A model generated the notes under the pieces. It had not been told where the DNA came from. It did no database searches and worked only from the letters and a program-made list of their open reading frames with translations. A stretch of 64,000 nt of DNA from a virus (lineage: Duplodnaviria; Heunggongvirae; Uroviricota; Caudoviricetes): the IMG/VR virus record IMGVR_UViG_2671180724_000008. The stretch is one strand, 5' to 3'. Both the position numbers and the translations under genes were made by a program. Positions within the stretch are counted from its first letter, which is position 1. Each line of letters opens with the position of its first letter. Shown in pieces: positions 51,954 to 60,319 of the stretch.

Positions 51954-54269
51954 ATGATAAGCATCGTAAAACGTAACGGCCAAACAGAGCCGTTATCCGA
52001 AGAAAAATACAACCGCGTCGTAATGTATGGCGTAGAAGGCATTCGTGGTGTAAGCGCATCCGCTGTAGCAATGGGAGCTGCGGCCAGCATTTTTGATGGG
52101 ATTACCACCAGCCAGTTGCATGAGGCTTTGGTTAAATCTGCCGCTGATTTGATCTCACCAGATGCACCAAATTACTCGCAGGTGGCTGCCCGCCTGAACA
52201 TTTTTAAAATCCGCAAAGATGCCTTCGGTCGTTACGACTATCCGAACTTCTACCAACACATTGTCAAGAACGTTAACAAGGGCGTCTATGACAAGGATTT
52301 GCTGACACATTATTCATTTGAAGAGATCGAAGAACTCGGCAATTACATTAAGCCTAAACGTGACGATCTTTTTGGCTATGCAGCTACGGTGCAATTGCAA
52401 AGCAAATATCTCGTTCAAAACCGTGTTACTGGTGAGATTCATGAGGGGCCGCAACATATCTATATGCTGGTAGGCATGTGTCTGTTCCAGAATTGGGAAG
52501 ACGACTGCGCTGGCAAAACACGTATGGAGATGGTCAAAGGTTTCTATGACGTTACAAGTACGTTCAAACTGTCTCTGCCCACACCAATCATGGCCGGCGT
52601 CCGTACTCCAACCCGTCAGTTCTCCAGTTGTGTGCTGATTGAGTCTGGCGATAGTCTGAAAGGTATTAGTGCAGCTTCAGCCGCAATTATCGACTACGTT
52701 TCACGTCGTGCTGGAATTGGTATTGGTTTTGGCCGTATCCGTGCGCTGGGCAGCGAGATCCGCAATGGTGAAGCCACCCATACCGGAGTTATTCCATTCC
52801 TGAAGCATTTCCAGACGGCTGTTAAATCTTGTTCGCAAGGTGGTGTTCGTGGTGGCGCAGCAACAGCGTTTTACCCGATCTGGCATCTTGAAGTTGAAAG
52901 TCTGCTGGTGGTGAAAAATAACCGTGGTATTGATGAAAACCGCGTTCGCCATCTTGATTACGGCGTCATGAGTAACCGTCTAATGTACCGTCGACTCGTC
53001 AGAAGCGAGAACATCACTCTGTTCAGCCCGCATGATGTGCCTGATATGTACGAAGCCTTCTTCACAGACCAGGATCTGTTTGAAAAGCTGTACCATAAAT
53101 ACGAAGCCGATGATTCAATTCGCAAGAAGTCAGTACCTGCCATTGAGCTGTTCTCATCTCTGATGCAGGAACGAGCGTCCACGGGCCGAATTTATATTGC
53201 GAACGTCGATCATATTAATGAGCATGGCGCTTTCATTCCTGCTCTTGCACCTGTCCGCCAGTCAAACCTGTGCATGGAGATCACTCTACCCACTCGTCCA
53301 CTGGCATTTACCGACGACCCGAACGGTGAGATCGCGCTATGCACTTTATCCGCTTTTAACCTCGGAGCCATCCGTTCACTGGAGTCTCTTAAAGAGGTGG
53401 CGTTCTATGCCGTTGCTGCACTGGATTCGTTACTGGATTATCAAGACTATCCGATGGAGGCAGCCGAAGTGCCTGCCAAAGCTCGTCGTAGCCTGGGAAT
53501 CGGTGTAACCAACTTTGCTTATTACCTGGCAAAGAATGGCGTTCGTTATTCTGATACCGCTGGCAATAAACTGGTGCATGAAACGTTCGAAGCTATCCAG
53601 TATTACCTTCTTGATGCCAGCTGCCGACTTGCTGAAGCAAAAGGTGAGTGTGACTGGTTTGAGCAGACCAAGTACGCAATTGGTCAGTTGCCGATCGACC
53701 ATTACCGTTCTTCATTAGACGAAAGTGACGAAACCAACTTTGAGTTAAAGATGCCGTGGGAAGAACTGCGTGAACGTATTGCGAAATACGGCCTTCGCAA
53801 CTCCACACTGACGGCACAAATGCCATGTGAGACTTCCAGCCAGATCACTAATTCCACCAACGGCATCGAACCGCCTCGTGGCCCGGTGTCGGTGAAATCT
53901 TCTAAGGACGGCATCGTTAAGATGGTCGTGCCTGAGTTTGAAAAACTGAAGGAACAGTATGAATACCTGTGGGATATGCCGGACAACCGCGGCTATCTGA
54001 CAAAGGTGGCGATCATCCAGAAGTTCTTCGACCAGGCTATTTCAGCCAATACCAACTATGACCCTTCTCGCTTTGAAGGCGATAAAGTCCCAATGATGAC
54101 GCTACTGTCAGATTTGCTTCTCGCCTACAAGATGGGAGTTAAAACGCTTTACTACCACAACACCAGAGATGGGGCAGGAAAGCGTGATGACGACGAACCG
54201 CAGAATCCACTGACGCAAGCTGTAGCCGTCGAGCCAGAAGATGAGTGCGACGGAGCCTGCAAAATCTGA
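51954..54269 (+). CDS. nrdA: ribonucleoside-diphosphate reductase alpha subunit (class Ia NrdA)
   Basis: 771-aa ORF. Near-collinear, high-identity match (by eye) to enterobacterial NrdA along its length, including N-terminal ATP-cone, catalytic-site segments and C-terminal Cys pair. Confidence 0.9.
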   Translation: MISIVKRNGQTEPLSEEKYNRVVMYGVEGIRGVSASAVAMGAAASIFDGITTSQLHEALVKSAADLISPDAPNYSQVAARLNIFKIRKDAFGRYDYPNFYQHIVKNVNKGVYDKDLLTHYSFEEIEELGNYIKPKRDDLFGYAATVQLQSKYLVQNRVTGEIHEGPQHIYMLVGMCLFQNWEDDCAGKTRMEMVKGFYDVTSTFKLSLPTPIMAGVRTPTRQFSSCVLIESGDSLKGISAASAAIIDYVSRRAGIGIGFGRIRALGSEIRNGEATHTGVIPFLKHFQTAVKSCSQGGVRGGAATAFYPIWHLEVESLLVVKNNRGIDENRVRHLDYGVMSNRLMYRRLVRSENITLFSPHDVPDMYEAFFTDQDLFEKLYHKYEADDSIRKKSVPAIELFSSLMQERASTGRIYIANVDHINEHGAFIPALAPVRQSNLCMEITLPTRPLAFTDDPNGEIALCTLSAFNLGAIRSLESLKEVAFYAVAALDSLLDYQDYPMEAAEVPAKARRSLGIGVTNFAYYLAKNGVRYSDTAGNKLVHETFEAIQYYLLDASCRLAEAKGECDWFEQTKYAIGQLPIDHYRSSLDESDETNFELKMPWEELRERIAKYGLRNSTLTAQMPCETSSQITNSTNGIEPPRGPVSVKSSKDGIVKMVVPEFEKLKEQYEYLWDMPDNRGYLTKVAIIQKFFDQAISANTNYDPSRFEGDKVPMMTLLSDLLLAYKMGVKTLYYHNTRDGAGKRDDDEPQNPLTQAVAVEPEDECDGACKI

Positions 54270-54374
54270 CATATGGTGGGGGGTATCCCCACCTTCTCTT
54301 TGATTTGTAAGCCTTGTTTAAACAAATAAGATAACAACTTGTTTAAACACATCAAAAAGCAAAAGGAAAAACAC

Positions 54375-55517
54375 ATGTCATATTCAACGTTCCGTTTGGG
54401 TGCTAATGATGCAACCAAAGAGCCTATGTTCCTCGGACAATCTGTCAACGTGGCACGTTACGATCAGCAAAAATACCGTGATTTTGAAAAGTTGATTGAA
54501 CGTCAATTGTCTTTCTTCTGGCGGCCGGAAGAAGTTGATATTTCGAGCGATCGCATCGACTTCAATACGAAGCTGCGGGACCACGAACGCCACATTTTCC
54601 TGAGTAATCTCCGTTATCAAACGTTGCTCGATTCAGTTCAGGGACGTAGCCCAAATGCAACGCTGCTGCCGCTTATCTCTATTCCTGAACTGGAAACGTG
54701 GGTTGAAACGTGGTCTTTCTCTGAGACTATCCATAGCCGTAGCTACACCCACATTATTCGTGGCATGGTGGACGATCCGAGCATTGTTTTTGACGGTATT
54801 GTTACGGATGAAGAAATCATCAACCGAGCGATCAGTATCTCTGCTGAATATGACAGGCTTTATGGGATGACATGCGAGCGCCAGTCGTTAGGTGAGAAGG
54901 AGTTTGAACGTCTGTACGTAAATGAATATGGCTGGGAGCCATACCCTTTGCACCGTCAGCTTTTCCGCACGTTGGTGTCCATTAATGCGCTTGAGGCGAT
55001 CCGTTTCTATGTAAGTTTTGCATGTACGTTTGCCTTTGGCGAACGGAAGTTGCTTGAGGGTAACACCAAAATTATGCGCTTTATTGCCCGTGATGAAGCT
55101 CTGCATTGCGAAGGAACTGAACGCATGATCCGCTTCATGCGTACCGGTCGAGAAGGTTTATTGTGGAAAGAGATTGCTGCTGATGAAGAAAACGTCATTT
55201 ACGACACCATGAAATCAGTCGCCGAACAAGAAATGAACTGGGCAGACTATCTCTTCAAAGACGGTTCGATGATTGGTTTAAACGCGGATATTCTCAAAAC
55301 CTATGTAAAATACCGCACCAATCTGGCTATGAATCGTCTTGGCCTGAAGGCTTTATTTCCAGAAGTTACCACTGATCCGCTGGTCTGGATGAACAAGTGG
55401 TTGTTAACCGACACACTGCAAATTGCACCACAAGAGGCAGAGCAAAGCACATATCTGGTAGGTCAGATCGATTCTACCGTGGATAAGGCTTCTCTAAGCC
55501 AGTTTGCAGACCTGTAA
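54375..55517 (+). CDS. nrdB: ribonucleoside-diphosphate reductase beta subunit (class Ia NrdB)
   Basis: Start at the ATG preceded by aaaaggaaaaacacATG. Iron-ligand and tyrosyl-radical region [18 protein letters not shown] and ARDEALH conserved as in E. coli NrdB. Confidence 0.9.
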
Positions 55518-55594
55518 ACCGATACAAAGCATTATGTGGCCTGGCAACGCTGGGCCACAATGGATCACAAGAATTAAGAAGGAACAAAACTAGC

Positions 55595-56464
55595 ATGAAC
55601 TTTACCAAACTGACTGACCACCTGAAACTTGCCACCGATCGACTCATTGGATTTAAGCCAGAACCATATGAGTTGCATGAAGGTCATGGTGTAGCTACTG
55701 AAAGTATTTACAAGATGGTCGATCAGTTTCATGAACTCTTCCAGCATCCGAGACGCGTTATGCCGACACCAGAGCTGCTTCGTCTCCGTGCAAGCCTGAT
55801 TCATGAAGAAGCTGTAGTGGAAGGTATTCCAGCCGCAATGAATGGGGATATTGAGCAACTGCTGGATGCAATGGCCGACTTTTTATACGTTGGTGTTGGT
55901 ACGATGGTCGCCATCAAAGGTGGTATTTCTACCGGCATGACCTATTACACGCAGGAACAGAGCATTGATCGCTTTATGCAGACAATTTTTGTGCCTGGTA
56001 ACACTGTTTTCGATGATATGGCAATGCCATTTCAGGAAGCTCGTGAGGCGTCATGTATGCTCGAAGAGCTGGCAGATAAACTTGAGAACAAGACTGTTAA
56101 GGATTCTGAGCTGATTCAGGAACTGCGCCGTGTAATGAACAAAATCTATGTGGCGTGCATGATGACCTATCGACTGGCTGATTTCCTCGGTATCAATGTC
56201 GTCGAGCTGGTTGGCGAAATTCATCGGTCCAACATGACAAAATTATGGCCTGCAGATGCCGAAGAGCGTCGCCATGCTGTGGCCAACTGCAAATACGACT
56301 CTTCTGACCTGGGATTTCGCCATGCTGATGGCACCGATAAGATGATCGGTTTTCGAATTTCCGATGGAAAGATTCTGAAGTCTCCAACCTATAGTGATGT
56401 CGATTTATCCTCCTTTGTTGAGCAAGCTAAAGCCTCAGCAATGTACGGAATGATCAAAAAATAA
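55595..56464 (+). CDS. MazG-like nucleoside triphosphate pyrophosphohydrolase (putative, tandem all-alpha NTP-PPase modules)
   Basis: 289-aa ORF with two EE..E...D..D acidic helical motifs (IHEEAVVEG...DIEQLLDAMADFLY and EEL..K...D.E.I.E), located between nrdB and thyA. Confidence 0.35.
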   Translation: MNFTKLTDHLKLATDRLIGFKPEPYELHEGHGVATESIYKMVDQFHELFQHPRRVMPTPELLRLRASLIHEEAVVEGIPAAMNGDIEQLLDAMADFLYVGVGTMVAIKGGISTGMTYYTQEQSIDRFMQTIFVPGNTVFDDMAMPFQEAREASCMLEELADKLENKTVKDSELIQELRRVMNKIYVACMMTYRLADFLGINVVELVGEIHRSNMTKLWPADAEERRHAVANCKYDSSDLGFRHADGTDKMIGFRISDGKILKSPTYSDVDLSSFVEQAKASAMYGMIKK

Positions 56465-56533
56465 TTGTAGGTAGTTATCTATCTGTGTATATTGCATTGG
56501 CGCGTTAAATTTCTGAAACAACTATTCGTTTTT

Positions 56534-56558
56534 GGTGGCCTATGGCCACCATTTTTTT
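56534..56558 (+). terminator. rho-independent terminator
   Basis: ggtggcc-tat-ggccacc hairpin followed by attttttt. Confidence 0.75.
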
Positions 56559-56635
56559 ATCTATCTGGTCTTGTTCGCTCAATAAATGTAAACTCACATA
56601 ATGAATAAGTAGTTACTTATCTTTGTGAGGTTTTT

Positions 56636-57739
56636 GTGTCACTCCTTTTGAATCGTGAGCATACGAACGGTCAGGTAACAAACGCATCGTATGCAAAAGT
56701 TATTGAGACGGTGCTTAAAAGCGGCGTGCAGGCTGATGATCGCACAGGCACTGGTACTTTAAGCACCTGCTACGTTCCCTCTTACTACATGCTTACTGGT
56801 GGGACTGTGCCGCTTATTTCTGGAAAGGCGGTAAATCTTAAGCCACTACTTGTCGAACTTGAGTGGTATCTGAAAGGCACGGGCAACATCCAATTTCTCA
56901 AGGATAACGGCGTTAAGATTTGGGATGCATGGGCCGATGAGAATGGCGATTTGGGGCCGGTTTACGGTAAGCAGTGGCGTCGCTGGGAAGATACCCGCAT
57001 CGTGAGCCATAGTGAGTATCTGAGCAAGATCGATACGTTCCGTGAACGCGGGTACAAAGTCGAGGGATACCTGGGTATCAGTGAAGATCGCGTAGTGCTG
57101 TCCCGTGAAATCGATCAGCTACAGCGTATTGTCGATACACTGCGCACGAACCCTACCGATCGTCGCATCATGCTTAACGCATGGAACGTAGGCGAGCTTG
57201 AGGATATGAAACTGCCACCTTGCCACTTTGTCTTCTCTTTGTGGAGTCGTGAGCTTGATTTTGAAACCCGTTTAACGATGGCAACTGACATTGGTCTTCA
57301 ACACAGTCGCCTCGGTTACGAGTCTATCTACACCAAGATGCTATACGATCTGGAGATGGTCGGCAGTGTTACTGAAACTGAACTGGATGAACTTGGAATC
57401 CCCAAACGCATCCTCAACTCCTGCCTCGTACAGCGTAGCGTAGACACTTTTGTTGGTATGCCATTCAATATTGCTGGTTATGGCATTCTCACTCATTTTC
57501 TCGCGAAGATTACGGGTCACATGGCCGGTGCCTTTGTGCATTTTGGCTTTGACGTGCATTTGTACAATAACCACATGGAAAGTGTGTGTGAGCTAATGAA
57601 ACGACAGGCTCCAGAGCATTCAGATCCGGTCGTTATTTTCCCTCATGAATGGTCTGAGCTGGATGATTTCAAATGGGACGATATTCTGATTCTTGGCTAT
57701 GACCCTCTACCGTGGATCAAGGTTCCAGTGGCGGTGTGA
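56636..57739 (+). CDS. thyA: thymidylate synthase (ThyA family) with internal insertion
   Basis: GTG start. Conserved DRTGTGTLS, RRIMLNAWN and catalytic LPPCHFVF motifs plus QRSVDTFVGMPFNIAGY. At 367 aa it is about 100 aa longer than E. coli ThyA, mainly from an insertion after the catalytic Cys. Confidence 0.8.
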   Translation: MSLLLNREHTNGQVTNASYAKVIETVLKSGVQADDRTGTGTLSTCYVPSYYMLTGGTVPLISGKAVNLKPLLVELEWYLKGTGNIQFLKDNGVKIWDAWADENGDLGPVYGKQWRRWEDTRIVSHSEYLSKIDTFRERGYKVEGYLGISEDRVVLSREIDQLQRIVDTLRTNPTDRRIMLNAWNVGELEDMKLPPCHFVFSLWSRELDFETRLTMATDIGLQHSRLGYESIYTKMLYDLEMVGSVTETELDELGIPKRILNSCLVQRSVDTFVGMPFNIAGYGILTHFLAKITGHMAGAFVHFGFDVHLYNNHMESVCELMKRQAPEHSDPVVIFPHEWSELDDFKWDDILILGYDPLPWIKVPVAV

Positions 57740-57740
57740 T

Positions 57741-58154
57741 ATGGCAAGAGGTATGTATGTCTTATGCGAAATTGAAGGTGTGCTGGCAAATACCAGCCAT
57801 CGTAAATCTGTATCTGACGCGGATGCAGGCCAGCTCATTGCCGGTGATGAACTCATTTTCCCTACCAGCCGTATGTTGCGTGGTTTTGCTCGCTCAGGGG
57901 CTGAAGTGGTGCTTATCAGTAGCCGCTCTGAAACCCTTGAAGCGCCCACTAAACGATGGCTGAAAGATTTTGGTGTTGATTACGACTGGCTTCATCTCGT
58001 ACCGAATGGCATCAGTTATGAGAAGCATATTAAGCGCACATTAGCGGAGCATAAAGGCGATCTGCTTATCGCTGCGCTGGTGCACGATCCTCGACTCCGT
58101 GCCGCTTTAGCTGACTCTCATCATAGACCGGTCATCTATGAGGTGGGCAAATGA
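57741..58154 (+). CDS. HAD-fold hydrolase-like protein (putative nucleotidase-like; atypical motif I)
   Basis: Start at the ATG immediately after the thyA stop. Motif YVLCEIEGVLA resembles HAD motif I DxDGVL but with Glu in place of Asp. Confidence 0.3.
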   Translation: MARGMYVLCEIEGVLANTSHRKSVSDADAGQLIAGDELIFPTSRMLRGFARSGAEVVLISSRSETLEAPTKRWLKDFGVDYDWLHLVPNGISYEKHIKRTLAEHKGDLLIAALVHDPRLRAALADSHHRPVIYEVGK

Positions 58155-58627
58155 AGATGATAGCTGCTGTTGGCCGTAATTATGAGATCGGTAGAGCGAA
58201 CGAACTGCCCTGGCGTTGCTCTACCGATCTGAAGCTATTTAAGAGACTCACCAAAAACGCCACTGTCGTTATGGGACGTAAAACGATGGAAAGTCTCAAA
58301 CGCCCTCTTCCAGAGCGTCATAATCTCGTTTTGACGCGCTCTCATGGCTTTGTACCAAATGGATTCTACCCTGCTGGTGTGGATGATGTGTTGCGATTAC
58401 CAGAGCCTGTGTGGGTGATTGGCGGGGAACAAATTTACTCGCTATTCATGCCGCATGTTGAAGAGATTTGGCTCTCCCACATCGGCGTTGATGTACCAAA
58501 CGCTGATGCATTCTTCCCGGCAAGCATGATGCGTAACTTAGGCTTTGTGCCTGTTGAAACAGCTTATACCCAACGAGCCAGCGAGGAAGAGCCTGGCTTT
58601 TCGCAGATCGTATACAGAAGGTCGTAA
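58151..58627 (+). CDS. folA: dihydrofolate reductase
   Basis: 158-aa ORF with N-terminal MIAAVGRNYEIGRANELPW and VVMGRKT motifs typical of DHFR; translationally coupled to the upstream gene. Confidence 0.8.
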   Translation: MKMIAAVGRNYEIGRANELPWRCSTDLKLFKRLTKNATVVMGRKTMESLKRPLPERHNLVLTRSHGFVPNGFYPAGVDDVLRLPEPVWVIGGEQIYSLFMPHVEEIWLSHIGVDVPNADAFFPASMMRNLGFVPVETAYTQRASEEEPGFSQIVYRRS

Positions 58628-59271
58628 TGGATTACCGGATTGGGATCACTGGTGCTCAGGGCAGTGGGAAAACAACCCTGGCTAAATATATCGACAAACA
58701 TTACGGAATCCCTTACGTGGATGCTGGTGTCGGAAGTTTGATGAGCCGCCTCGGTGTTCGAGTAGGTGAGTCTATGCCTCTATATGAGCGGCTTCAGATT
58801 CAAATGGAAATAGCAAAGCATATAGAGCTACTTACGCGTGGTGTTGAAGGCTTTGTTATCGATCGTACACCTGCTGATGTTATGGCCTACACGTTGGATT
58901 TGGTCGGCCATACAAATGAAGAGCGGTGTATTGAGTTAGCCCTCGATATCGAAAAGTTTTGCCACAAAACTGCCATTTCAAACTTTAACGCCATTGCTGG
59001 CTTACGCCCGGGAGTCGCTCTCTCAGAGCGAGATTACTTGCGATCACAACGAGCATCATTAGACCGTCTGTATGTTGCTCGTATTGATGCGTTGATGTGC
59101 GGGGAACTGACAAAAATTCACCTGCATCCGCAAAGGGGAGATCTGCAAACCTTCGTCGTTTCCAACCGATATCGCACGGTTGAAGCAAGAGCCAGATCAG
59201 TGATGAGAATGCTAGATAACGCTGTAGAAAAGATAGAAAACCGGTTCTGTGGCCGAGTGACCGTTCATTAG
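58627..59271 (+). CDS. P-loop nucleotide/nucleoside kinase (putative dNMP kinase)
   Basis: 214-aa ORF with Walker A GITGAQGSGKTT at the N-terminus; sits in the nucleotide-metabolism cluster. Confidence 0.45.
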   Translation: MDYRIGITGAQGSGKTTLAKYIDKHYGIPYVDAGVGSLMSRLGVRVGESMPLYERLQIQMEIAKHIELLTRGVEGFVIDRTPADVMAYTLDLVGHTNEERCIELALDIEKFCHKTAISNFNAIAGLRPGVALSERDYLRSQRASLDRLYVARIDALMCGELTKIHLHPQRGDLQTFVVSNRYRTVEARARSVMRMLDNAVEKIENRFCGRVTVH

Positions 59272-59332
59272 AAATTGTTCGCCTCTTCTACATTGCGACA
59301 ATAAAACTCTCAAAATGGGTTAAGGATAAAAA

Positions 59333-59752
59333 ATGTTTAGTGAAATGTTGCTTGAAGATGAACTGGATCGGAAAACAACAGAGGCTTTGATTCGTGTGGC
59401 GGACGAACATTCTCGGTCGTTTATGAGCGATCGAGAGGCTCGTCTGGCTATTCGTGCCATATTCGAAACTGCGCAAGGGCTTGTTGGCGCACAAGTAGGT
59501 GAAGCCATTAACATCGCCATGTCTCAGTTCAGTGAAGGCAGTAAAAAGCCTCTGTTTCCTATGCATTTGATGCTGGCTGGTGGCACGGTGCTTTATATCT
59601 CTGTTTGTCTGGATAGCAACCAAATCAATATTCTCAACACTGCGTCAGGTAAGTGGAAAGATCCGATTGTCTGTGAAACCAGTGAAGAAACTTTGAAAAA
59701 AGCGGCTCAATTTGTACGTAGCGCACTACTTAAGGGCGCTAAGAAGTTGTAA
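59333..59752 (+). CDS. hypothetical protein
   Basis: 139-aa ORF with RBS aaggat upstream. Confidence 0.4.
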   Translation: MFSEMLLEDELDRKTTEALIRVADEHSRSFMSDREARLAIRAIFETAQGLVGAQVGEAINIAMSQFSEGSKKPLFPMHLMLAGGTVLYISVCLDSNQINILNTASGKWKDPIVCETSEETLKKAAQFVRSALLKGAKKL

Positions 59753-59761
59753 GGAGTTCTG

Positions 59762-60319
59762 ATGACAACGATTGTTGCAGGCATCGATATCGAGTCTACG
59801 GGACTGGATTTCCTTGCTGGTCATAAAATTATTGAAATCGCAATTACCCGCTATGAACTGGAGACACAGAGACATATTGATAGTCTGGAGATGCGTTTTA
59901 ACCCTCGCAGAAACATAGATCCGAAAGCTCAAGCCGTTCATGGCATTTCATTGGAACAGCTCGCAGCTGAACCTTTGTTGTCAAATCATGCCAGCGAAAT
60001 TGGCGCTTATATGGGGGCATGTAGTGCGTGGATTGCTCATAACGGCGAAGCGTTTGATATACCATTTATTCGGCACGAGTTTTCAGGGTATGGAGTAAGA
60101 CTGCCAGACGTTCCTGTTATAGATACTATGTTATCGGGATTGTGGGCCACAGAAGACGGTAAACGCCCCCGCCTTGAAGAGTTGGCCTTCTCTCTTGGCT
60201 TTATATACGATCATGCCAAAGCACATAGTGCCTTATATGACACAAACTTAATGATGCAATGCTTCTTTAAGGCACGTAATAAGTACGGATTTTTTAAATT
60301 ACCCTCTGAAATTGTGTAA
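59762..60319 (+). CDS. DnaQ-like 3'-5' exonuclease (DEDDh family)
   Basis: 185-aa ORF with Exo I GIDIESTGL, Exo II AHNGEAFDIPF and Exo III H..LYDT motifs. Confidence 0.7.
   Translation: MTTIVAGIDIESTGLDFLAGHKIIEIAITRYELETQRHIDSLEMRFNPRRNIDPKAQAVHGISLEQLAAEPLLSNHASEIGAYMGACSAWIAHNGEAFDIPFIRHEFSGYGVRLPDVPVIDTMLSGLWATEDGKRPRLEELAFSLGFIYDHAKAHSALYDTNLMMQCFFKARNKYGFFKLPSEIV

Follow-up and report, generated by a model that had tools for sequence, protein, structure and literature searches.

A phage-plasmid thymidylate synthase with conventional active-site residues and two surface inserts typical of large-phage ThyA

Thymidylate synthase (TS) ThyA of Escherichia coli (EC 2.1.1.45; PDB 2TSC, 1AOB) provides the reference for the enzyme analyzed here, which adopts the same fold and is 44% identical over 264 aligned core positions. 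Catalytic and substrate-binding residues as well as the C-terminal tail are identical or conservatively replaced, and the same chemistry would be expected; differences comprise an additional length of 103 residues and the exchanges of A142 to Lys and C168 to Val. Phage T4 likewise combines a phage ThyA (Td) with a phage dihydrofolate reductase (DHFR, Frd) and ribonucleotide reductase, while Td differs in comprising 286 aa with much shorter inserts. Finer-Moore et al. are said to have proposed in 1994 that the surface inserts of T4 Td form contacts within the dNTP-synthetase complex. The PF00303 superfamily and the Cys-dependent activation of C5 are also shared with T4 gp42 dCMP hydroxymethylase, SPO1-type dUMP hydroxymethylase, and RB69/DLP3 5-hydroxy-dCMP synthase, yet these enzymes carry L143D/E and/or N177D or D169N (E. 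coli numbering), whereas our protein has Leu, Asn, and Asp at these positions (PMC13326640).

A likeness in architecture is found in the TSs of jumbo phages, namely Salmonella phage SPN3US (gp037), Cronobacter phage CR5 (CR5_107), Pseudomonas phage 201phi2-1, and Erwinia phages, all of which carry two inserts at the same two sites. In these enzymes as in ours, insert 2 opens with the motif (S/T)RE(L/M)...R and closes with (L/M)Dxxx(I/V)P(R/K)RxL, and insert 1 contains D(T/V)(R/K)(I/V)V...GY...G; their overall identity to our protein is only 37–41%. Their loci contain a MazG-like gene within a few kb, but the genes on either side, mostly hypothetical, include none annotated as DHFR. Moreover, the CR5 and SPN3US cores are 75–80% identical to E. 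coli ThyA, in contrast to the 44% of the core described here.

The window, i.e., the whole 64,000-nucleotide stretch analyzed, is an SSU5-like phage-plasmid, and its DNA is 98% identical to Escherichia phages CMS-2020a and Cyrano. On the plus strand, thyA fills exactly the ORF 56636..57739 and encodes 367 aa from a GTG start, a choice identical in the Cyrano, SSU5, and PGAP records; a Shine–Dalgarno sequence GAGG (56627..56630, +) can be read 5 nt upstream. PF00303 is the sole Pfam match of the product, and its score of 267 bits (1.9e-79, cut-off 24.3) rules out chance resemblance. TIGR03284 is likewise matched with 223.5 bits (cut-off 108.35), while the narrower NF00249x equivalog models stay below threshold, their match being interrupted by the inserts. 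A PDB sequence search aligns E. coli ThyA in three blocks (4e-61), and the AlphaFold model (pLDDT 94.9) superimposes on E. coli TS with a Foldseek TMt of 0.94. Thus, the original prediction of a TS homolog about 100 aa longer than canonical ThyA is borne out, and both motifs it named, LPPCHFVF and QRSVDTFVGMPFNIAGY, are found in the product. The label ThyX, given to this gene in the Cyrano record OV696614, is a misnomer, as the only Pfam match is PF00303.

A residue map spanning E. coli R21 to I264 reveals that R36, K64, E74, W96, W99, Y110, R176, R177, L193, and C196 match their E. coli counterparts, as do H197, Q266, R267, S268, D270, G274, N278, H308, Y310, and the C-terminal V-A-V. Cys196, the catalytic nucleophile (E. 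coli C146), is encoded at 57221..57223 (+) and is invariant in both alignments checked. The P-C-H motif with C196 and H197 and the phosphate-binding arginines R36, R176, R177, and R267 (E. coli R21, R126', R127', and R166) are also invariant in the homolog alignment. Closing of the C-terminal tail has a role in determining whether a methyl or a hydroxymethyl product is formed. Here, the C-terminus reads K-V-P-V-A-V and E. coli position 143 is occupied by the bulky hydrophobic L193, indicating the methyl rather than the hydroxymethyl type by the position-143 criterion that separates synthases from hydroxymethylases (PMC13326640). E. coli position 177 corresponds to an Asn (N278), which points to a dUMP-type rather than a dCMP-type enzyme (PMC8670742, PMC13326640). 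In total, the diagnostic positions 143, 147, 169, and 177 are all synthase-type (L193, H197, D270, and N278), as is the C-terminal PVAV. The signature of dCMP/dUMP hydroxymethylases such as T4 gp42 and SPO1 gp29 (acidic residue at 143; Asp177 for dCMP enzymes) is absent, given L193 and N278. Equally, D270, N278, and L193 depart from the 5-hydroxy-dCMP synthase signature of RB69 gp48 and DLP3 gp80, which combines D169N with N177D and L143E (PMC13326640).

This pattern extends to the relatives. Among 97 representatives carrying insert 2, L143, C146, H147, and Y94 (E. coli numbering) are invariant, Asn occupies position 177 in 63/66 sequences aligned there, and position 169 is Asp in 66/79. One exchange occurs close to the substrate: A142, which in the E. 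coli enzyme is no more than 6 Å away from C5 of dUMP (PMC13326640), is replaced by Lys (K192) in the clade of the thyA product, and long forms have either A or K at this position.

The genes around thyA complete a dNTP-supply setting. Upstream, nrdA (51954–54269) and nrdB (ORF 54339–55517, probable ATG at 54375), assigned from their ORFs and ortholog annotation, encode a class Ia ribonucleotide reductase (51954..55517, +), followed by a MazG-like (PRA-PH) nucleotide pyrophosphohydrolase of 289 aa (55595..56464, +; PF01503, 35.6 bits; phrog_671, 1.1e-47). The gap between the MazG-like gene and thyA holds an intrinsic terminator-like hairpin of 8 pairs (6 G-C) with a T-run, recognized by consensus match only (56533..56561, +), which suggests that thyA opens a separate transcription unit; no convincing sigma-70 promoter was found 3' of this hairpin. 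Downstream, a HAD/PNKP-phosphatase-like ORF of 137 aa (57741..58154, +) starts 2 nt past the thyA stop; it matches phrog_5387 and, at 24.1 bits and thus under the cut-off of 27.6, PF25109. Its stop is overlapped by 4 nt by the start of a DfrA51-type DHFR gene (58151..58627, +; PF00186, 120.5 bits), the product of which is identical to SSU5 DHFR (DfrA51) at 142 of 158 residues (90%) and whose ortholog PGAP names dfrA51, beside "thymidylate synthase". For SSU5 DfrA51, activity and trimethoprim resistance have been demonstrated (PMC12217456). The DHFR had been placed next door to thyA; it is indeed encoded nearby, but next-but-one, the HAD-like ORF lying in between. Finally, a P-loop kinase-like protein, a putative dNMP/dTMP kinase, is encoded at 58627..59271 (+) with a start overlapping the DHFR stop. 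Its presumed kinase function is drawn from matches to AAA_28 (38.8 bits) and phrog_2107 thymidylate kinase (2.3e-10) and from a weak match to the (d)CMP kinase model TIGR02173.

With a pyrophosphohydrolase, a phosphatase-like protein, a TS homolog, and a P-loop kinase, this neighbourhood superficially resembles the SPO1/T4 toolkit (outlined in PMC8989533), and PF00303 itself spans synthase and hydroxymethylase activities. The protein might accordingly be read as a dUMP/dCMP hydroxymethylase or another non-canonical pyrimidine synthase, acting with its MazG-, HAD-, and kinase-like neighbours in a modified-base pathway as in SPO1/T4. We consider this extremely improbable. L193 is neither Asp nor Glu, N278 is not Asp, D270 is not Asn, and both H197 and the C-terminal PVAV are retained. 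Moreover, DHFR is required only where folate is oxidised, i.e., in the synthase reaction (PMC4528723), such that the co-encoded DHFR argues for a synthase. In the HAD-like ORF, motif I is C-E-I-(E/D), an invariant Glu taking the place of the expected nucleophile Asp, and 230 complete E. coli genomes carry the element as a plasmid, which likewise speaks against a modified-base pathway. No glycosyltransferase, 5-hmdU DNA kinase, aGPT-Pplase-like, or other hypermodification gene is annotated by PGAP within the first 100 kb of a closely related plasmid of 109.9 kb, the thyA of which shares 99.5% identity with the window gene. For the MazG-like pyrophosphohydrolase, a part in ordinary dUMP supply or in sanitising the pool is just as plausible. 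Hence the original prediction was right to favour a true TS over a hydroxymethylase, given synthase-type residues at all discriminating positions and a DHFR 90% identical to active DfrA51 in the same overlapping gene string, while the modified-nucleotide pathway it also raised finds no support in the gene content or in the HAD-like ORF. The gene is an already known, ordinary thymidylate synthase without sign of a modified-base pathway.

As an ordinary TS, the enzyme would convert dUMP and 5,10-methylene-THF to dTMP and dihydrofolate within the dNTP-supply module of the SSU5-like phage-plasmid. By homology, Cys196 would attack C6 of dUMP and the methylene group would be transferred from the folate, whereupon a hydride, also from the folate, would complete the methyl group in a water-excluding pocket formed by L193, W96, and the closing C-terminal PVAV. 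The DfrA51-type DHFR, two genes downstream, would then recycle dihydrofolate. The module is arranged in the order nrdAB, MazG-like gene, terminator-like hairpin, thyA, HAD-like ORF, dfrA51, and kinase-like gene. The ends of the last four touch or overlap, and the string from thyA to the kinase-like gene may be transcribed polycistronically.

The 103 residues in excess of the 264 aa of E. coli ThyA are distributed as 15 + 34 + 51 plus about 2–3 in a C-terminal loop. Residues 1–15 (56636..56680, +) form a poorly conserved N-terminal extension with a mean identity in the clade of 24% and a pLDDT of 66 over the first 10 residues. Insert 1 (residues 119–155; 56990..57100, +) adds ~34 aa net to the small domain between E. 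coli W101/P102 and R107 and is predicted to fold as strand-helix-strand-strand. Insert 2 (residues 204–260; 57245..57415, +) adds ~51 aa net between E. coli Y153 and L160 and is predicted to project as three helices from the tip of the β-hairpin behind Cys196. An insertion after the catalytic cysteine, predicted from the first reading of the DNA, is therefore present, but it is larger than the ~45 residues given and starts 7 residues beyond Cys196 rather than right after it. Likewise, the N-terminal extension was correctly noted, while the second insert in the small domain was overlooked.

Both inserts are predicted with confidence in the AlphaFold model (pLDDT about 95). The same insert architecture is predicted for P0040, a distant member, and the predicted fold is thus conserved between these two remote relatives with pLDDT values exceeding 90. 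Solved structures do not cover it: a search with the insert profile found no PDB sequence containing insert 2 at E<=1, and Foldseek against the PDB returned canonical enzymes only, with a TMq of about 0.68 and the inserts uncovered. In contrast, BFVD models of the jumbo-phage TSs cover the inserts with a TMq of 0.78–0.84, the upper value being that of 201phi2-1. A literature search on the SSU5/pHCM2 thymidylate synthase and on phage TS inserts yielded nothing about the inserts.

To describe the distribution of this architecture, we use "long-form phage ThyA" as an informal group defined by an insert in the W101 loop together with an insert at the C146 hairpin tip that contains an invariant Arg and Pro. 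The thyA product belongs to it by virtue of its 34-aa insert 1, its 51-aa insert 2, and the residues R212 and P256. Among 58 homologs of 290–400 aa, the small-domain site is extended in all and 55 have a clear hairpin-site insert of >=28 extra residues. A profile of insert 2 matches 208 clusters formed at 50% identity; of 149 that were inspected, 146 proved to be thymidylate synthases. Insert 1 accompanies insert 2 in at least 58 of the 97 insert 2 representatives. All three long forms whose contigs were examined reside in a large-phage context. A tblastn search of phage records covered >=80% of the query in 423/503 cases, a proportion that is not the fraction with inserts and in which long forms are probably favoured by the per-alignment E-value limit. 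In a neighbour-joining tree of core columns, the deep branches of which are not to be trusted, long forms fall into several separate groups. On the basis of these alignments and profiles, both inserts are a family trait of large-phage and phage-plasmid ThyA. The idea that an insert special to this gene alters specificity is unsupported, since both inserts recur in SPN3US, CR5, 201phi2-1, and the 208 clusters; the extra length is, as the original prediction had allowed, a common feature of phage Td-like enzymes. We thus regard the gene as very probably encoding a ThyA-type TS of conventional catalysis, whose extra length represents an N-terminal tail and two inherited surface inserts that would leave the chemistry unchanged. 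The neutrality of the inserts for catalysis is inferred only from the intact active-site residues; the literature yielded no enzyme assay of any long-form member.

Both inserts are under purifying selection. In comparison with SSU5, pN and pS are 0.023 and 0.517 for insert 1 and 0.125 and 0.826 for insert 2. Within insert 2, R212 and P256 are invariant in 38/38 divergent sequences and an IP(R/K)R motif is conserved, while its middle varies in sequence and length (28 to 64 extra residues). Identity in the clade amounts to 38–41% for the inserts and 60–67% for the core. The variable middle of insert 2 and the lower conservation of the inserts relative to the core would suit selectively near-neutral decorations of insertion-tolerant loops without specific function, all the more as other phage enzymes of 554–739 aa in total accept much larger additions at the same two sites, with inteins nearby. 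Such decorations nonetheless seem rather doubtful, in view of the retention of both inserts in more than 200 clusters, the joint occurrence of insert 1 with insert 2, the low pN/pS in both, and the combination of invariant residues with a predicted fold conserved between distant members.

The same selection, the invariant R212, and the IP(R/K)R motif could instead reflect a true TS in which the inserts alter kinetics, folate/polyglutamate preference, inhibitor sensitivity, or regulation, for example to escape the control or inhibition of host ThyA. The partner DHFR is itself drug-insensitive, and inserts are kept even on the E. coli-like cores of CR5 and SPN3US, arguing for a phage-specific benefit. 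However, insert 2 leaves from the hairpin tip, which in the textbook fold is the strand end opposite to C146 and R166, and the first-shell residues are all unchanged. This explanation is therefore quite improbable.

The hairpin after C146 is part of the dimer-interface sheet, and in the textbook fold its tip should be well removed from the catalytic pocket. The two inserts are perhaps best understood as independently folding elements at insertion-tolerant sites, one in the small-domain loop that follows E. coli W101, the other at the hairpin tip after C146, which would provide an accessory surface either bracing the obligate dimer or docking a phage partner. Bracing would follow from the position of the hairpin in the interface sheet, while the protein-contact alternative is modelled on the proposal for T4 Td. 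More specifically, the inserts might constitute a phage-specific accessory module, selected whatever the origin of the core, that tethers the synthase to DHFR or to a dNTP-synthesising or replication complex; CR5 and SPN3US, with both inserts on cores 75–80% identical to E. coli ThyA, would be instances of such a module. We consider this unlikely; if true, the module would be a non-covalent analogue of the protist DHFR-TS fusions.

The gene is a routine part of phage-plasmid nucleotide supply and is already named correctly by annotation pipelines, as illustrated by the label "thymidylate synthase" in 230/5426 complete E. coli genomes (~4%). Because about 4% of these genomes contain plasmids that pair it with DfrA51, a DHFR insensitive to trimethoprim, the locus has some clinical relevance. 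In practical terms, extra ThyA length should not be taken as a sign of modified DNA. At the family level, large phages and phage-plasmids retain two inserts that are well folded, under selection, and constant in position within a very well-studied drug-target enzyme.

The loop of insert 1 corresponds to that of the second small-domain insert of eukaryotic enzymes in an alignment with human TS. An equivalence with the well-known L. casei TS insert of 50 aa was rejected; alignment places that insert elsewhere, upstream of Y94, where it is flanked by WDEWA and GDLG. Neither human nor L. casei TS is extended at the hairpin position of insert 2. We also rejected the idea that insert 2 is left over from an intron or intein: it is in frame, translated, confidently predicted to fold into three helices, and far below intein length, and the thyA product gives no Pfam match to Hint or intein domains. 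As a separate observation, genuine inteins are present in some relatives, where they are located at the catalytic Cys.

The thyA gene of the window lies at 56636..57739 on the + strand, exactly where it had been predicted. An ORF scan gives a GTG start and a protein of 367 aa. A Shine-Dalgarno motif read from the sequence (GAGG, 56627-56630, + strand) ends 5 bases before the GTG, and the Cyrano, SSU5, and RefSeq records begin the gene at the same codon. PF00303 (Thymidylat_synt) is the sole Pfam family of the protein (1.9e-79, 267 bits), with its match split in two stretches, and the TIGR03284 score of 223.5 bits exceeds the cut-off of 108.35. Window thyA encodes a ThyA-type thymidylate synthase that is already known and correctly annotated, of the long form often found in large phages and phage-plasmids. 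In a phmmer comparison with PDB sequences, E. coli ThyA aligns to the query in three blocks (18-118, 156-203, and 261-367). Multiple alignments place the 103 extra residues in an N-terminal extension of 15 aa, insert 1 in the small domain (query 119-155, ~34 aa, flanked by the equivalents of E. coli W101 and R107), insert 2 in the hairpin (query 204-260, ~51 aa, flanked by the equivalents of E. coli Y153 and L160), and 2-3 residues of the C-terminal loop. The original prediction had recognized the N-terminal extension and the insertion after the catalytic cysteine, which is real but not distinctive and comprises ~51 aa rather than 45 aa; the 34-aa insert 1 had escaped it.

The residues that discriminate synthases from hydroxymethylases are of the synthase type. 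Asn177 (E. coli numbering) selects dUMP and Asp at this position dCMP (PMC8670742). At position 143, bulky hydrophobic Leu correlates with methyl products and Asp/Glu with hydroxymethyl products, while D169N marks 5-hydroxy-dCMP synthases (PMC13326640). In our residue alignment, the window protein carries L193, D270, N278, and H197 at the discriminating positions. Moreover, all other first-shell and phosphate-binding residues are kept (R36, K64, E74, W96, W99, Y110, R176, R177, C196, Q266, R267, S268, G274, H308, and Y310), and the C-terminus reads K-V-P-V-A-V as in canonical enzymes. The co-encoded DHFR (58151-58627) is identical to the SSU5 DHFR at 142 of 158 positions. The SSU5 enzyme, expressed and found to be active and trimethoprim-insensitive, was described in 2025 as the trimethoprim-resistance determinant DfrA51 (PMC12217456); the E. 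coli plasmid ortholog of the window DHFR is likewise dfrA51 in PGAP. DHFR is required only if folate is oxidized, as in the synthase reaction (PMC4528723). Because of the synthase-type residues and the DfrA51-type DHFR, we assign to window thyA, with high confidence, the role of a genuine dTMP-forming enzyme, in line with the preference originally stated for a true synthase over a hydroxymethylase. An altered substrate specificity brought about by the insert had also been considered. We see no sign of it, and since the active site is unchanged, a change of chemistry by either insert is unlikely.

The extra length itself proved to be a common phage feature, the very outcome that had been named as speaking against a special role. 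A homolog search covering 5.8 billion proteins yielded a clade of proteins 350-378 aa long, encoded on ~100-120-kb contigs, with named members from Salmonella, Klebsiella, Enterobacter, Raoultella, Providencia, Morganella, and Xenorhabdus, together with many metagenomic homologs of 315-354 aa. Of 58 aligned homologs of 290-400 aa, every one is longer at the small-domain site, and 55 have a clear insert (at least 28 extra residues) at the hairpin site. Insert 2 opens with (S/T)RE(L/M)xxx(E)R and closes with (L/M)Dxxx(I/V)P(R/K)RxL around a middle of variable length; one arginine (R212) and one proline (P256) are invariant in 38 divergent sequences. A profile of insert 2 only, run against 1.84 billion cluster representatives (E<=0.001), hit 208 clusters. 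Thymidylate synthases account for 146 of the 149 examined, and the other three are short fragments. L143, C146, H147, and Y94 are invariant in the 97 near-full-length representatives. Asn occupies position 177 in 63 of the 66 sequences that align at this site, and Asp occupies position 169 in 66 of 79; consequently, the long form as a whole looks synthase-type. All three long-form contigs examined are large-phage contexts, with genes for T4-type RNA ligase, PhoH, NAD-dependent ligase, thymidylate kinase, and RNR, and many small ORFs lacking a Pfam match.

Both inserts also occur in the enzymes of phage SPN3US (338 aa, L002:4046-5062) and Cronobacter phage CR5 (337 aa, L004:4007-5020), both jumbo phages from the phage collection, despite their E. 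coli-like cores. Over 264 aligned positions, identity to E. coli ThyA is 80% for CR5 and 75% for SPN3US, whereas the window core reaches only 44%. At the DNA level, CR5 aligns with the chromosomal thyA of E. coli in exactly three segments (76% coverage, 75.4% nucleotide identity). The coexistence of such cores with both inserts suggests mosaic evolution, either by replacement of the core from the host with retention of the inserts, or by transfer of the insert segments.

Between window and SSU5, the nonsynonymous and synonymous proportions (pN/pS) are 0.023/0.517 in insert 1 and 0.125/0.826 in insert 2, compared with 0.009-0.086/0.74-0.80 in the three core segments. In the SSU5-like clade, amino acid identity averages 60-67% in the core, 41% in insert 1, 38% in insert 2, and 24% in the N-terminal tail. 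The inserts are thus constrained, less tightly than the core, while the tail is barely constrained. AlphaFold2 (64-sequence alignment) models the protein with a mean pLDDT of 94.9 and a pTM of 0.93. Insert 1 is predicted as a strand (117-124), two short helices (125-137), and two further strands (141-146 and 152-159), insert 2 as three helices (209-225, 231-242, and 247-253). The same architecture is predicted at both sites of P0040, a distant long form with an E. coli-like core (pLDDT 95.6). Foldseek against the PDB retrieves only canonical enzymes, covering the core (TMt 0.94, TMq 0.68), and the insert 2 profile has no match among PDB sequences. Predicted viral structures cover more of the query, namely those of 201phi2-1 (457 aa, TMq 0.84) and Erwinia phage Yoloswag (366 aa, TMq 0.78).

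In an alignment with the L. casei and human enzymes, the insert 1 loop is presumably the site of the second small-domain insert of eukaryotic enzymes and not the L. casei insert site. At the hairpin site, the E. coli, L. casei, and human enzymes are not known to have anything comparable. The hairpin is part of the sheet that makes the obligate dimer interface of the ThyA fold. As its strands run from C146 to R166, its tip is the point of the hairpin farthest from the pocket. The best inference is that the inserts would provide an accessory surface that extends or stabilizes the dimer or docks a phage partner, a role reportedly proposed earlier for surface inserts of T4 Td. The remaining interest is at the family level, in two selected, well-folded, structurally uncharacterized inserts retained in phage enzymes.

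Window positions 55500-59300 share 97.6-98.5% identity with the Escherichia phages CMS-2020a, Cyrano, and PhiR41_1, and 76% with Salmonella phage SSU5. The window represents an SSU5-like phage-plasmid. Of 5426 complete E. coli genomes, 230 (~4%) contain the same thyA, with 232 of its 234 places on plasmids; the best-matching records are plasmids of ~108-110 kb, and the best E. coli records listed label it thymidylate synthase. In gene order, the neighborhood comprises nrdA (51954-54269), nrdB (54339-55517), a MazG-like pyrophosphohydrolase gene (55595-56464), thyA, a HAD-like ORF (57741-58154), DHFR, a P-loop kinase-like ORF (58627-59271), a hypothetical ORF (59333-59752), and a DnaQ-like exonuclease gene (59762-60319). 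Between the MazG-like gene and thyA, a gap of 171 nt holds a strong, terminator-like hairpin (TGGTGGCC-TAT-GGCCACCA then T7, 56533-56561), and a consensus scan found no convincing sigma-70 promoter downstream of it. From thyA through the kinase-like ORF, each gene abuts or overlaps the next, so that these four may form one translationally coupled unit. In the Cyrano record (L001, OV696614), CYRAN_72 is misleadingly labeled “ThyX Thymidylate synthase”, a misnomer for a ThyA-type gene; the HAD-like gene is termed “polynucleotide kinase”, and CYRAN_75, the kinase-like gene, is misleadingly labeled “ABC transporter ATP-binding protein”.

A modified nucleotide pathway involving the MazG-like and HAD-like genes, as originally proposed, finds no support. 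The HAD-like protein (137 aa) matches a PNKP-phosphatase HAD profile below threshold only. Its family of 38 proteins, mostly of SSU5-like phage-plasmids, has an invariant Glu in place of the nucleophile Asp in motif I (C-E-I-(E/D)-x-V-L-A) and may represent a pseudo-phosphatase or atypical enzyme. The MazG-like gene encodes a generic all-alpha pyrophosphohydrolase, which fits dUMP supply or pool sanitizing. As in the window, a MazG/PRA-PH-type gene lies a few kb from the long-form synthase in SPN3US (L002, at position 8.3 kb), CR5 (L004, at position 8.4 kb), and two metagenomic phages (L005, 4514-5146; L007, 1801-2364), a recurring association in four unrelated large-phage genomes. The P-loop protein (214 aa, AAA_28), probably translationally coupled to DHFR, shows weak matches to thymidylate kinase and (d)CMP kinase, below every curated threshold; a putative dTMP/dNMP kinase completing the dTTP branch is plausible. 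The plasmid pG749_2 (109.9 kb) carries a 99.5% identical thyA. Over its first 100 kb, PGAP annotates neither a glycosyltransferase nor a DNA-base kinase nor any comparable gene for hypermodification, and lists only an N6-adenine methyltransferase.

Two further observations concern long-form gene structure. Four metagenomic long forms (P0170, P0174, P0198, and P0290) contain an intein with a LAGLIDADG homing endonuclease at or beside the catalytic cysteine (Pfam profile position ~148-154). In addition, 31-33 of the 97 near-full-length insert 2 representatives lack the region from about E. coli N177 on (P0165, P0171, P0186, P0197, P0278, P0282, and ~25 more). Several of these ORFs end a few residues past insert 2 (...LYQ), which would fit intron-split genes or simply contig ends; the T4 td intron presumably sits near this point.
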